From the IMG/VR virus record IMGVR_UViG_2713896908_000004: a DNA stretch of 14,162 bases. One strand, written 5' to 3'. The stretch comes from a virus. Lineage: Duplodnaviria > Heunggongvirae > Uroviricota > Caudoviricetes. The stretch's first letter is position 1. Each line of letters starts with the position of its first letter. Shown here in pieces: positions 7,601 through 13,600 of the stretch. The position numbers are program-made.

Positions 7601-10600
7601 CAATAACGCCCACATAAGGCGGTTTTGAGGATTACTCCGCCTGGGTTCTTTAACGTGGACTTCGTGAGGTGACTTGTCGTCGATGGGAAGTGAGAGTATT
7701 GCGTCTATGGCGTTATTTCTGATTGCTTCGTTGCGAAGCATGTATATTTGCTTCATCGAAATTCTTCTCTTTAATTCCAGCGGCTCTGATAGCTTTCATT
7801 ACTGCAATTACCGTTTTGTCTCTCCCATCCTCATAACCCATCGCATAAGCACCTTCTTCACCATCTTTCCAAAAGTCGTCATTCGATTCGGGCCAGTCGA
7901 TATCCAGTTCAATAGCTGCTCGCGATGCCTGCCACGTTTGCCAGTGGCCTTGAACATCGTCCATCACGTATTGACCACCAATATTACCGCTGCCAATTTC
8001 ATGGTGATTTTCAGGGTAACGGATAAGGTCTGAAGATTCGCCCCCACGTCGCAACCAACTTTCTTCAAACTGCTTTCTTGATTCGTCCATCGGTACTTAC
8101 CATCAGTTCAACTCACAAAACGCCACGCCATTTTTGCTACAGCGACAGGCGCAACACCGATAATCACCCACAGGAGAATGCTACCGAAAAGCACACCCAC
8201 CAGGTCTTTACCTTCGCCTACCAACCGGACAAAACAGCCAGCAACCACAATGAACGTCGCCACCATCCACATAGCACCGAGAAGCCTCAATGCAGAGAAA
8301 ATCAACTCAGCCACGATTTACTCTCCCCCAAATAAAAAGGCCTGCGATTACCAGCAGGCCTGCTATCAGCTCAGTGATGTAGATGGTCATCTTTTAACTC
8401 CATATACCGCCAATACCCGTTTCATCGCGGCACTCTGGTGACACTCCTTAAAAATCAGGTTCGTGCTCACCTTTCCTTCCCGTTCTTCTCTGGTAGCGAA
8501 CCGGTAATACACCGTTCGCCAGACCTTACCTTCGATAACCAGAAGACCTGCCCGTGCCATTTTAGCCGCGGCCTGATTTATGCTGGTTACTGTTGCGCCT
8601 GTTAGCGCGGAAACGTCCTGTGCACAGAAGCTCTTATGCGTTCCGAGGTAATGAATAATTGCCTCTTTGCCCGTCATACACTTGCTCCTTTCAGTCCGAA
8701 CTTAGCTTTAATTTCTGCGATCTTCGCCAGAGCCTGTGCTCGATTCAGAGGTCTGCCGCCCATGACAGGAAGTTGTTTTACTGGTTCAGGTATAGTCTCA
8801 CCACGGTTAATTCGTGCTGTCATACAGGTCAGTTCATCGGCAGCCTTGCGCCGTAATTCCGCGTCAGTCAGCGCATTGGCCCGCATGTTCTGGTACAGGT
8901 TGGTAACCAGCCAGTAGTGCGCGTTTGATTTCCACGGATAAGACTCTGCATCCGGATACAGGCCACGCTTCCGGCAATACTCGTAAACCATATCAACCAG
9001 CTCGCTGACGTTTGGCAGTCCGGCGATAACGGATGCTTCTTCCCGGCACCATGCAACAAACTGCCCGGGTGATGGCAGAAATGGTCGATTCTGCCGACGG
9101 GCTACGCGCATTCCTGCGTTAACCTGTTCCATTGTGGTGATCCCGTTTTCCCGGAAAGCCAGAACCCACTGGCGACGGATTTCGTTCACCTCGTTCTGGT
9201 CACGGTTAGCCAGGCTCGCCGGGAAAGTTGCCAGTAACTGGCTGAACACACCATTGATGATCTGCGCTACCTGCTGTACCTGCGGCTTTTCGTCGTACTG
9301 TTCCGGCATGTTGTTGGCGATTCGACGCATCTGCTCACGGTCAAAGTTAACCATCTGTGCGGCGATGTTTTTCATAAATCCACCCCGTAAATCCAGTCAG
9401 TGTTTGTCAGGTCGAGTTTTGGTTTGCTGGCTGTCACGCCTGCCTGTTGCTTGTTACGGTTGATTTCGAGCTGGGTCCACTTGTCGCGGAGTTTGGCCGG
9501 GCTCAGCACGTTACCGGACCAGAAGTTGTCCTGGCATGCCCAGCGGAACAGTACGCACATGTCGCGATGGTTACGTCCGTCACGTTCACGCATCAGGCGG
9601 ATATCGTTAGCCCACCCTGCAAAATTCGGTTTTCTGGCTGGTCGGAGGATTCGCCAGAATTCTCTGACGAATAATCTTTTCTTTTTTCTTTTGTAATAGT
9701 GTCTTTTGTGTCCCCCTGTTTTGAGGGATAGCAATCCCCCAATTTGAGGGATGTTTTATCCCTCGTTTTAGGGGATTTTCCCTCGTTTTGAGGGATACAC
9801 CATTCTGAGATGTTTTTATTTGGTCCAAATATGCCGCCTTGCTGCTTGATAATATTCATTCTGACGAGTTCTAACTTGGCTTCATTGCACCGTTTGACAG
9901 GTAACTTTGTAATCTCGCTAAGTTGAGAATCGGTGATTCTGTCCATTGGTTTATTCCACCCATAGGTTTTACGCAGAATGGCAAGCAGCACTTTAAACTG
10001 TCGCTTGGTCAGATCTGCGCCTGAATAAGCCTCAAGCAGCATATTTGATAGTCTGGCGTAACCATCATCGAGATCTGCCACATTACGCTCCTGTTCGGCA
10101 AAGTTACCTCTGCCGAAGTTGAGTATTTTTGCTGTATTTGTCATAATGACCCCTGTGGATTGATCCAGTAATCCCCTCAGAATTGCATATCAATTTGCTT
10201 AGAGTCCCCGGCGGCCACCGGGGATTTTTTCTTTGTGATTCCATCAAGCACATACTTAAAAGCCCTACTAATCGGACTGATGTCTGATGCCATTCCGAAA
10301 GCACACAAGACCGAAGCAATAAACCGCCAGTCCGTTCTGCTTATCTTCGATTCATGACAGCCAATCATCTTTGCCAGACCTCGCTGTGTAAGCGTTGACA
10401 GGTTGATGAGTAAATCTGTTTCTGCGCGATCAATTTCTCGCTGTGTTGGCTTGCTGTAACTTGCTTGTGCCATTTGTTAATTTTCCTATATTGATATGGA
10501 GTTATAGCGGCATACCCAGTGGATTTGCCGCTGATGTTTGCTCACCCGGTTAGAGGTGAAAGGCCAGAACTGTTAAAGAGCAATTTACTTATGCCGCTTG

Positions 10601-13600
10601 GCGGTAAGCACTTTCTTGATACTTCAGGGCGCCAGCTGTAACGATTTCCAATCGATAGGCGTCTTTCTCTGGGATAACTTCTTTCCACTGAGAGACTGCT
10701 GCATCGCTAATGCCTAGTGCTTTAGCAACAGCACGCTGGGTTCCGAAGTGGTCAATAACATCTTTTTTGTACATAGACTCGCTCCGAAATTAAAGGGCAC
10801 TTAAATTATCTGCTAAAGGAATCTTAAGTCAAGTTTATTTAAGATGTCTTAACTATGAATACACAACTGATGGGTGAGCGTATTCGCGCTCGCAGAAAAG
10901 AACTCAAGATTAGGCAGGCTGCCCTTGGCAAGATGGTTGGCGTGTCTAATGTTGCTATTTCCCAATGGGAGCGATCTGAAACTGAGCCCAATGGCGAAAA
11001 CCTATTGGCCTTAGCCAAGGCTTTGCAGTGCTCCCCTGATTACCTGTTGAAAGGAGAGGATAGTCTTTCAAACATTGCCTATCACAGCAGGCATGCTCCA
11101 AGAGGTTCGTATCCTCTAATTAGTTGGGTAAGCGCAGGATGTTGGATGGAAGCTGTAGAGCCATATCATAGGCGTGCAATAGATAACTGGTACGACACAA
11201 CGGTAGATTGTTCTGAAGACTCTTTTTGGCTCGACGTTAAAGGCGACTCAATGACTGCCCCGGCAGGACTGAGTATTCCTGAGGGGATGATTATTCTCGT
11301 CGACCCAGAAGTCGAACCACGTAATGGAAAGCTGGTAGTCGCCAAACTTGAAGGAGAAAACGAGGCGACATTCAAAAAGTTAGTTATTGATGCCGGTAGA
11401 AAATTCCTGAAACCACTCAATCCACAATACCCAATGATTGAAATCAATGGGAACTGTAAAATCATTGGCGTTGTCGTTGATGCCAAGCTAGCAAACCTTC
11501 CTTAAGGGGCTTTCGCCCCTTTTTTATTTCCCGTTAAAAATCAAAGACAAACTAAATTCACGCCCATAAAATTAAGTTTTCTTCAAAAATACAGTTGACC
11601 TACAAATTAAGAAGTCTTAAATTTAAGCCATCAGCAGGACGCTGGAAGCCAAACGGAACAGATTGGCAGGCTCTTTAACATCGACGAACTCTCAACCTAA
11701 CCGTTGAGACCAGAACTTGAGTGGTTTTGGGGATGGCGCGAATTGCAGCTGCAAGACAGCGATCGAGAAGATAAGCACCTCGACGCGTCATGCGCCAAAG
11801 CCACTTAAAGGAGACCATCATGGTAACCATAGTCTGGAAAGAATCCAAAGGTACAGCAAAAAGCCGCTACAAAGCTCGCAGAGCAGAACTTATTGCCGAG
11901 CGACGAAGTAATGAAGCACTGGCGCGAAAAATTGCGCTAAAGCTCTCTGGTTGCGTCAGAGCAGACAAAGCAGCATCACTGGGAAGCCTTTGCTACAAGA
12001 AGAAAGAAGAATTCGTTCGAAAAAATAGAAGTATTTATTACAAGGATTCAAACCCATTAGGAAACAAAATACATGCAGTCCAAAAAATAAAATTGTACAG
12101 TAAACCACCGTACGGTGCTTATTGAGTATGCTTATGGTGAAAAAGACTATTTATGTTAATCCTGACCGCGGACAAAACAGAAAAGTATCTGATAGAGGCC
12201 TTACATCTCGAGACAGGAGGAGAATAGCGAGATGGGAAAAGAGGATAGCATATGCATTAAAAAACGGTGTAACACCTGGATTTAATGCTATAGATGACGG
12301 TCCTGAATATAAGATTAATGAAGACCCAATGGACAAAGTTGACAAAGCATTAGCAACACCATTTCCTCGCGATGTTGAAAAAATTGAAGATGAAAAATAT
12401 GAGGATGTAATGCACAGAGTTGTTAACCACGCTCACCAACGAAATCCAAATAAAAAATGGTCATAGCCCACTTCGATGGTTTTTTTTATTGTCTGAACTA
12501 ACCGAATTTATTACAGCAAGCCACGCAGTGAAATGGGTGTGACTTGTGTTGGTCGCCAGAAAATGAAATTAGGCAGCAAACCACTTATTTGAGGTGATAT
12601 ATGGAAGAACAGGCAAATAAGATTCTCATAGAACTATTGCAAAAAGCCAGTAATGGAATAGACACGGCTGTCTCATTTATCCAGGCACAGATTCCTGATG
12701 TTGTTCATCAGTTGCTGCTATGGAATATGGTTGACAGTCTGATTAAAACATTAATAGCCATTTTAACAATCCCGCTGGTTTTCTGGTTTATGAAGAAACA
12801 GTACCAAAAAGTTGAAATTGGTAAGTTCGATGATGAAGGATGGTCATGGGATAAGGGGAAGACTAAATACAAACCGACTATGATTTGGGAAAGTAACGGT
12901 GAGATTAGTTTTCTAATCTTACCATTAGCTGCAGTTTTTGTTCTGTGGGTAAATTTTATTATTGCTGTAGCAATCAATATGACTTGGTTAAAAATTTGGC
13001 TGGCCCCAAAGCTTTACCTTATCGAATATGCAGCATCATTGGTTAAGTAATTTTAGGCCGCATAGTCGGCCTTTATTTTTGGCATAAACAACAGAATAAA
13101 CACTGCACTGTGTATTCATTCCAACGAGTGAATACACGGAGCAATGTCGCTCGTAACTAAACAGGAGCCGACTTGTTCTGATTATTGGAAATCTTCTTTG
13201 CCCTCTAATGTGAGGGCGATTTTTTATCTATGAGGATATGAATAGATGTCAAACATCAAAAAATACATCATTGATTACGACTGGAAAGCATCAATAGAAA
13301 TTGAAATCGACCATGACGTAATGACAGAGGAAAAACTTCACCAGATTAATAATTTCTGGTCAGACTCTGAATACCGGCTCAATAAACACGGCTCTGTATT
13401 AAATGCTGTATTAATCATGCTGGCGCAACATGCTCTGCTTATAGCAATTTCAAGCGACTTAAATGCATATGGTGTTGTGTGTGAGTTCGACTGGAATGAT
13501 GGAAATGGTCAGGAAGGATGGCCTCCAATGGATGGTAGCGAAGGAATAAGAATTACCGATATCGATACATCAGGAATATTTGATTCAGATGATATGGCTA

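Follow-up and report, generated by a model that had tools for sequence, protein, structure and literature searches.

A stretch of 14,162 nucleotides from the Caudoviricetes record IMGVR_UViG_2713896908_000004 in IMG/VR (the whole stretch is called the window throughout) carries a lambdoid immunity region at 10542-11709, and this locus raises two questions: which immunity type it represents, and how it came to lie beside replication genes resembling those of lambda. The initial annotation had described a mosaic, in which phage 21-type nut sites and an N gene sat on a lambda-type replication backbone and the module boundaries were recombination junctions. Our analysis supports the type and not the junctions. 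We assign a probability of about 0.93 to the reading of the interval as the core of a natural phage 21-class (imm21) lambdoid prophage, the part that governs its immunity and early regulation. The window is oriented opposite to the lambda map, with the lysis genes and Q at low coordinates and N, gam, and the left arm at high coordinates, and the two ends of the interval coincide exactly with the outer ends of two boxB elements.

The nut sites provide the first line of evidence, each pairing a boxA with a boxB hairpin:

10542-10559, minus strand: boxB of nutR, UCACCUCUAACCGGGUGA, CUAACC hexaloop; equal to the annotated phage 21 nutR stem-loop
10572-10581, minus strand: boxA of nutR, GCTCTTTAAC, exact pattern match; equal to phage 21 boxA-R
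11670-11679, plus strand: boxA of nutL, GCTCTTTAAC, exact pattern match
11690-11709, plus strand: boxB of nutL, UCUCAACCUAACCGUUGAGA, CUAACC hexaloop; loop as in the phi21 boxB of PDB 1NYB

On the plus strand nutL boxB (11690-11709) reads TCTCAACCTAACCGTTGAGA, and the reverse complement of 10542-10559 gives nutR boxB as TCACCTCTAACCGGGTGA. RNA folding assigned both boxB RNAs a 7-bp stem with a CUAACC hexaloop, which is the loop published for the phi21 boxB RNA of PDB 1NYB (PMC12550061). The shuffle z-scores of the two hairpins were -0.28 and +0.27, meaning energies no better than those of shuffled sequence; this is expected because the hairpins are short, and since the scores are uninformative, it is sequence identity rather than thermodynamics that excludes chance for boxB. 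Alignment to phage 21 (OL657228) demonstrated base-for-base identity of boxA and boxB at both sites, the sole nut difference being an A for G in the nutL spacer. At each site boxB lies downstream of boxA at a distance of 10-12 nt, and the whole window holds only two exact copies of GCTCTTTAAC, one per nut site. Consistent with the gene order of annotated phage 21, nutL separates pL from N, and nutR separates cro from cII. The two CUAACC hairpins are thus where the initial annotation had placed them, as judged by sequence, fold, and identity to phage 21 nutL and nutR. An Rfam scan of the whole window returned the lambda cIII thermoregulator and three tRNAs only, with no nut-site or oop family.

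The second line of evidence is the N gene:

11820-12125, plus strand: N antiterminator, 101 amino acids (aa), with an AAGGAG ribosome-binding site upstream

The protein contains GTAKSRYKARRAELIAERR, the motif attributed to it earlier, and its arginine-rich motif (ARM, aa 8-29) is identical at 22 of 22 positions to chain A of PDB 1NYB, the phage 21 N peptide. Identity to phage 21 N (N21) extends over aa 1-57, aa 30-57 included, and stands at 78% for the whole protein.

The repressor region between the nut sites points in the same direction:

10589-10774, minus strand: cro, 61 aa, 61 of 61 residues identical to phage 21 Cro; P22_Cro family PF14549, 5.7e-28
10789-10806, 10811-10829, and 10837-10854: OR1, OR2, and OR3, placed by alignment to the annotated phage 21 operators
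minus strand: pR, -35 TTGACT and -10 GATAAT, from a consensus scan
10855-11505, plus strand: cI repressor, 216 aa, LexA-like, with HTH_3 and Peptidase_S24 domains (Pfam)
11541-11558, 11570-11587, and 11605-11622: OL3, OL2, and OL1, placed by alignment to the phage 21 operators
plus strand: pL, -35 TTGACC at 11595-11600 and -10 TAAATT at 11618-11623, from a consensus scan

The cI product matches the 216-aa reading of phage 21 cI at 215 of 216 residues, the difference being D81A, and is followed by a terminator-like hairpin with a T-run at 11504-11521. OL1, OL2, OL3, and OR3 are identical to their phage 21 counterparts. OR2 carries three substitutions in the outer part of the right half-site (10811, 10812, and 10814), at positions that also differ in P22 and in one E. 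coli relative, and OR1 carries two central ones (10796-10797, TT to CC); the OR1 and OR2 half-sites are otherwise intact. Four further substitutions flank the -35 hexamer of pL (11591-11603). These changes cluster at 10796-10814 and 11591-11603 while the adjacent cro coding sequence is 100% identical, and they might modulate how tightly repressor or Cro binds or how strong the promoters are.

In 200-bp bins the immunity interval is 98-99.5% identical to phage 21 at the nucleotide level, and together with the nut sites, the N ARM, Cro (100%), and cI (99.5%) this identifies the immunity type as that of phage 21. The same stretch also resembles the immC region of P22: P22 cro and c2 align at 78-90% nucleotide identity, Pfam places the Cro protein in P22_Cro, and the OR sequences differ little from those of P22. 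Yet phage 21 is much closer over the same stretch, P22 gives no alignment over nutL or N, and the ARM of P22 gp24 is unrelated. The P22 and phage 21 repressor-operator modules are reportedly related, which would account for the resemblance. We rejected a P22-type assignment on the grounds that the N ARM and boxB find no match in gene 24 of P22 and the P22 nut sites, and consider it highly improbable. When a match to some other immunity type was sought as a means of refuting the phage 21 assignment, alignment still returned phage 21 and the refutation failed.

By analogy with the characterized systems, the region would operate as follows. The cI repressor, through its helix-turn-helix and its S24 self-cleaving domain, would bind three 18-bp operators at each of OR and OL, shutting off pR and pL and conferring immunity to phages with the same operators, while Cro made from pR would oppose cI. 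Transcripts from pL and pR would each carry a nut site, boxA followed by the CUAACC boxB hairpin. The N ARM would bind boxB and, with host Nus factors at boxA, render RNA polymerase terminator-resistant. Delayed-early expression would follow, leftward through ea10, cIII, kil, gam, and bet and rightward through cII, O, P, the nin genes, and Q.

How this region relates to its surroundings is seen when the window is divided by its closest relatives:

1-265: 16 codons of a SAR (signal-arrest-release) endolysin and a pinholin; 94-95% nt identity to phage 434 and 75-77% to phage 21
266-1544: AT-rich stretch poor in open reading frames (ORFs); almost no match in a search of the phage collection
1545-1776: tRNA-Thr, tRNA-Arg, and tRNA-Met(CAT)
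1920-2630: membrane ORF of 236 aa, 60% aa identity to the 434 counterpart
2377-7320: Q82-like Q, ylcG, lpxR, ninI, ninG, ninF, ninE, and dam; closest to 434, with 82% nt identity over the 2401-2600 bin and 92-100% from 2601 on
7320-8321: variant ninB and two small ORFs; unmatched in lambda, phage 21, and 434
8321-10238: ren, P, and O; lambda, phage 21, and 434 alike
10238-12042: cII, nutR, cro, cI, nutL, and the 5' part of N; phage 21 only
12043-12499: variant N tail and nun; matched solely by mEp235 and HK022
12500-12609: remnant of the 3' end of N21; 97% identical to phage 21
12610-13061: orf149 at the site of ral; no match
13062-14162: ea10, cIII, kil, and gam; lambda at 98%

The replication side of the junction consists of the following genes:

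10177-10473, minus strand: cII, phage 21 type, 98 aa; 88.9% aa identity to phage 21 cII and 34% to lambda cII
9372-10144, minus strand: O, lambda/21 type, broken by a 127-bp frameshifting deletion
8674-9375, minus strand: P, lambda/21 type, 98.3% aa identity to lambda
8387-8677, minus strand: ren, 94-95% aa identity to lambda and phage 21

The initial annotation would make the locus a recent lambda x phage 21 recombinant, an imm21 block set into a lambda backbone with junctions just outside 10542-11709. The flanking O, P, ren, ea10, cIII, kil, and gam genes are indeed 93-99% identical to lambda, and homology with lambda breaks off near 10238 (cII 3' end, oop region) and restarts at 13062 (ral stop). 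These flanks, however, resemble phage 21 and 434 just as closely: the ren-P-O stretch at 8321-10238 is about 96% identical to all three phages, and single-nucleotide patterns across O, P, and ren do not single out lambda over phage 21 and 434. Collinearity with phage 21 runs straight through the supposed junction, from ren to about codon 74 of N (8321-12042, 96-99%), once the O deletion is bridged; the continuous alignment segments are 9629-12042 and 8321-9640. Because phage 21 aligns continuously across them, the edges at 10542 and 11709 are not recombination junctions; they are nut sites. Moreover, 434 matches a larger share of the window than true lambda imm21 hybrids do. On this evidence we regard a recent recombination between lambda and phage 21 as very unlikely.

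Under the imm21 prophage reading, the unbroken alignment from ren to N implies that the transition from immunity to replication genes came down from the phage 21 lineage. Lambda-like versions of O, P, ren, ninB/E/F/G, ea10, cIII, kil, and gam are carried by phage 21 itself, whose genome announcement describes the essential genes as syntenic with lambda (PMC9119081). The lambda/21 homology break near 10238 is thus an old one that phage 21 shares, and the immunity and replication modules are not separated by any new junction. The description of a mosaic on a lambda backbone accordingly stands insofar as imm21 lies beside lambda-like replication genes, but the arrangement is not peculiar to this prophage, since phage 21 is itself so built. 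The near-identity to lambda that had been proposed for the replication and flanking genes also stands in large part (P 98.3%, ren 94%, ninG 96%, ninI 94.6%, kil 95.7%, and 80 of the 81 gam codons present), with O as the exception because of its deletion. Breaks in homology with phage 21 occur instead at about 12042 (inside N), 12609/13062 (at ral), 8321 (at ninB), and 5836 (beyond ninG), and the Q-to-holin region is 434-like.

Three features had been overlooked in the initial annotation: the broken O, an HK022-type nun, and a chimeric N C-terminus. In O, alignment to lambda, phage 21, and 434 demonstrated the loss of 127 bp between 12-bp direct repeats, CAGCCAGAAAAC, of which one copy is kept at 9629-9640. 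The frame shifts after residue 174, the C-terminal part lies in a separate frame, and no intact 299-aa O remains; the four lambda-type ori iterons inside O (9713-9797) are intact, as is P downstream. The deletion was absent from all eight near-identical loci; O is intact at 299 aa in six of them, and in the other two, L012 and L015, O is interrupted by an insertion sequence or not called. The top E. coli matches over the site likewise span the full 318 bp, without the deletion. The deletion reflects either slippage specific to this strain, which would leave the prophage replication-defective, or an error of assembly.

The C-terminus of N and the gene that follows it form a second composite:

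12073-12101, plus strand: predicted nun promoter, -35 ATGCAG at 12073-12078 and -10 TACAGT at 12096-12101, inside the 3' part of N
12128-12466, plus strand: nun, HK022-type transcription arrest and exclusion factor, 112 aa from the first ATG; phrog_5632
12500-12592, plus strand: untranslated relic of the phage 21 N C-terminus, NRIYYSKPRSEMGVTCVGRQKMKLGSKPLI and a stop, 31 codons, directly after the insert

The last ~40 aa of N are about 50% diverged from N21, with the RKNR-IYY and QKIKL-SKP motifs kept. Alignment placed an insertion of about 455 bp relative to phage 21 at the codons for EEV-RK-NR of N; the insert begins with the diverged N tail RKNRSIYYKDSNPLGNKIHAVQKIKLYSKPPYGAY, which forms the translated end of N, and continues with nun. 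The relic beyond it, recognized by alignment and translation, is 97% nucleotide-identical to phage 21 33733-33624. The predicted Nun protein matches chain N of PDB 6ALG at 108 of 109 residues and the ARM of 1HJI chain B at 26 of 26, and its C-terminal RNA polymerase-arrest segment is identical to that of HK022 (KKWS). The nun promoter was taken from the annotation of phage O276 (MH547045), both hexamers being conserved in the alignment. The variant tail is the translated end of N in mEp235, mEpX1, and PA28; in HK022 it persists ahead of nun as a relic that is not translated. By its sequence, N appears to be a natural chimera, a phage 21-type front with a variant tail that travels with nun. The whole layout of N tail, nun, and relic (12043-12592) also occurs in mEp235, mEpX1, and PA28.

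In lambda, the C-terminal part of N contacts RNA polymerase, and by analogy the central and C-terminal regions of N21 would make the NusA and RNA polymerase contacts. We give even odds to the proposal that N tail plus nun form a portable cassette, which enters N genes by recombination at the conserved RK(Q)NR-IYY motif. The cassette would swap in a polymerase-contacting tail that houses the nun promoter, leave the old tail behind as a relic, and add exclusion of lambda-N-type phages to an imm21 prophage while its own nut sites are unharmed; HK022 would then be a descendant that later lost the 5' part of N. In functional terms, the HK022-type nun spliced into the 3' part of N would be expressed from its own promoter (constitutive in HK022 lysogens), and Nun, with its lambda-boxB-specific ARM, would arrest transcription of superinfecting lambda-N-type phages. 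The Nun ARM binds lambda boxB, and Nun arrests RNA polymerase on lambda transcripts (PMC5386594). The prophage would presumably be spared by its own Nun because the resident nut sites are 21-type. The N-tail and nun arrangement is already present in mEp235, mEpX1, Kapi1, and PA28, where it has apparently been little discussed; the chimera is a tidy example of moron insertion via recombination inside a gene, and no new kind of system.

A contig scan with the 38-nt nun ARM-coding sequence found matches on only two contigs. One is an exact match outside Escherichia, in Shimwellia pseudoproteus DSM 3038 (NZ_WBXP01000045.1, 1896-1933); the other lies on a short contig of a metagenome-assembled genome labelled Oxalobacter, which is probably mis-binned.

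Several points weigh against the imm21 prophage reading. All functions are carried over from the characterized phage 21, P22, and HK022 systems. Full N activity is assumed by analogy for a protein whose tail differs from that of N21, and the five OR1/OR2 substitutions could alter repressor or Cro affinities. With O frameshifted, this copy may be unable to replicate, in which case it would be a defective prophage whose early circuit has escaped selection. Finally, HK022 Nun is reportedly inactive on 21-type nut sites, and the sparing of the prophage depends on that.

The distribution of the locus bears on whether it is natural. The immunity interval is present in 489 of 5426 complete E. coli genomes at a coverage of at least 80%, and the genomes include BL21(DE3), whose DE3 prophage carries imm21 and which matches at 98.9%; no record in the same genomes covered at least 80% of the whole window. 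An exact search with the truncated O product identified the window as the complete contig BBWC01000028.1 of assembly GCA_001515045.1; a likely E. albertii origin of this contig would explain why coverage in E. coli stays below that level. The match to DE3 and to lambda imm21 (97.6-98.9% over the interval) would fit contamination or carry-over from a laboratory imm21 construct, such as DE3 or a lambda imm21 vector. The identity is nevertheless below 100%, and DE3 lacks nun, orf149, the variant ninB, dam, lpxR, the Q82-like Q, the three tRNAs, and the 434-type holin. In addition, the exact N protein was found in many chromosomes, in loci 99.3-99.9% identical to the window across 5947-14162, and at least two of the complete chromosomes with such near-identical prophages are from wild E. 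albertii: CP043254 and CP043266, which are strains RM15112 and RM9974 (PMC10673567). We therefore rejected laboratory contamination as refuted by genomic context, and find it scarcely credible. Recurrence of 5947-14162 in finished chromosomes also shows that the order of genes is no product of chimeric assembly.

The lysis genes at the low-coordinate end are of mixed affinity:

1-50, minus strand: N-terminus of a SAR endolysin, first 16 codons only, MSPSLRKAVAAAIGGG
50-265, minus strand: class II pinholin, 71 aa; PF04971 (P21 holin S), 1.1e-32

Both had been called 21-type, which holds at the family level (PF04971 for the holin; MSPSLRKAVAAAIGGG matches R21 at 15 of 16 residues). At the allele level it does not: the pinholin is 98.5% identical to 434 S and 74.6% to S21, making it 434/933W-like, and the endolysin, of which 16 codons are present, matches 434 at 16 of 16.

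Other neighboring genes vary in origin. The ORF-poor 1.3 kb at 266-1544, between the tRNA cluster and the holin, falls to 25% GC near 500-700 and occupies the position of stx and nanS-p in Shiga toxin (Stx) phages. The three minus-strand tRNAs at 1545-1776 (Thr-TGT, Arg-TCT, and Met/Ile-CAT) lie downstream of the Q82-like Q, the same position as tRNAs in phage 21 and Stx phages. A lipid A deacylase gene, lpxR, a virulence-type moron, lies on the opposite strand at 4003-4962 between ninI and Q, and its product is 99.7% identical to the 434 counterpart. The ninB region (7310-8314) encodes a divergent NinB (45% aa identity to lambda NinB), a 125-aa protein (phrog_343 and PF26207 in precomputed hits), and a 68-aa membrane peptide (phrog_1165); 8061-8391 matches mEp235 at 94% nt. 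At 12601-13050, between nun and ea10, a 149-aa predicted membrane protein (orf149, phrog_3054) stands in place of ral and is a candidate moron or exclusion gene. PADLOC, Pfam, and NCBIfam returned nothing for orf149, orf125, orf68, or the 236-aa membrane ORF. In cIII (13687-13827), codon 47 has changed from TCA to TAA, giving a 46-aa product without the last eight residues and altering the overlapping kil start from MDQT to MDKK; the 46-aa form is common to most of the near-identical loci.

The value of these results is mainly one of annotation: the window belongs to an imm21-class lambdoid prophage of a lineage that occurs in E. albertii. A lysogen is predicted to be immune to imm21-type phages and to exclude lambda-N types through Nun, and the O defect flags this prophage copy as probably replication-defective.

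Compared with known systems, the window shares with lambda the O, P, ren, ninE/F/G/I, ea10, cIII, kil, and gam genes (91-100% aa identity) and four lambda-type ori iterons, whereas no sequence relationship links the two in the cII-cro-cI-N block or the nut sites, and lambda's rexAB, ral, sieB, ninC/D/H, and Q/S/R are absent. Phage 434 (OL657226) aligns with 2377-7320 and has the closest pinholin (98.5% aa), but its immunity region is 434-type and the SASA esterase between its Q and holin is missing from the window. The immC region of P22 belongs to the same cro/c2 and OR operator family at 78-90% nt identity, and differs in its antiterminator (gene 24) and nut sites. HK022 Nun (6ALG, 1HJI) is near-identical (108 of 109 aa, with the same ARM and KKWS), and the region upstream, with its promoter, is 96% identical at the nucleotide level; nun in HK022, however, follows pL-putL with an N-tail relic and no intact N, whereas in the window it follows an intact, translated N21-type gene. 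The best match for immunity, chimeric N, and nun together comes from mEp235 and vB_EcoP_Kapi1 (97.8-98.4% over 10137-12593), which share the N tail, the nun gene, and the N21 relic and differ in the replication module, nin, Q, and lysis genes and in the genes left of nun; mEp235, unlike the window, carries another O and a DnaB-type helicase. Relative to phage 21 (OL657228), the window has about 40 aa of the N tail replaced, a nun cassette added, the N21 tail kept as a relic, orf149 for ral, a cII of only 89% aa identity, the 127-bp O deletion, different ninB, Q, tRNA, and holin modules, five OR1/OR2 substitutions, and four substitutions beside the pL -35. What the two have in common is the core itself: boxA and boxB of nutL and nutR, N aa 1-57 with the ARM, Cro, cI (215 of 216), OL1-3, OR3, and the gene order ren-P-O-cII-nutR-cro-cI-nutL-N. 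The phage 21 N/nut and imm21 module is already known, having been sequenced, annotated, and structurally characterized, and the copy in the window is a near-identical one of a kind common in public genomes.

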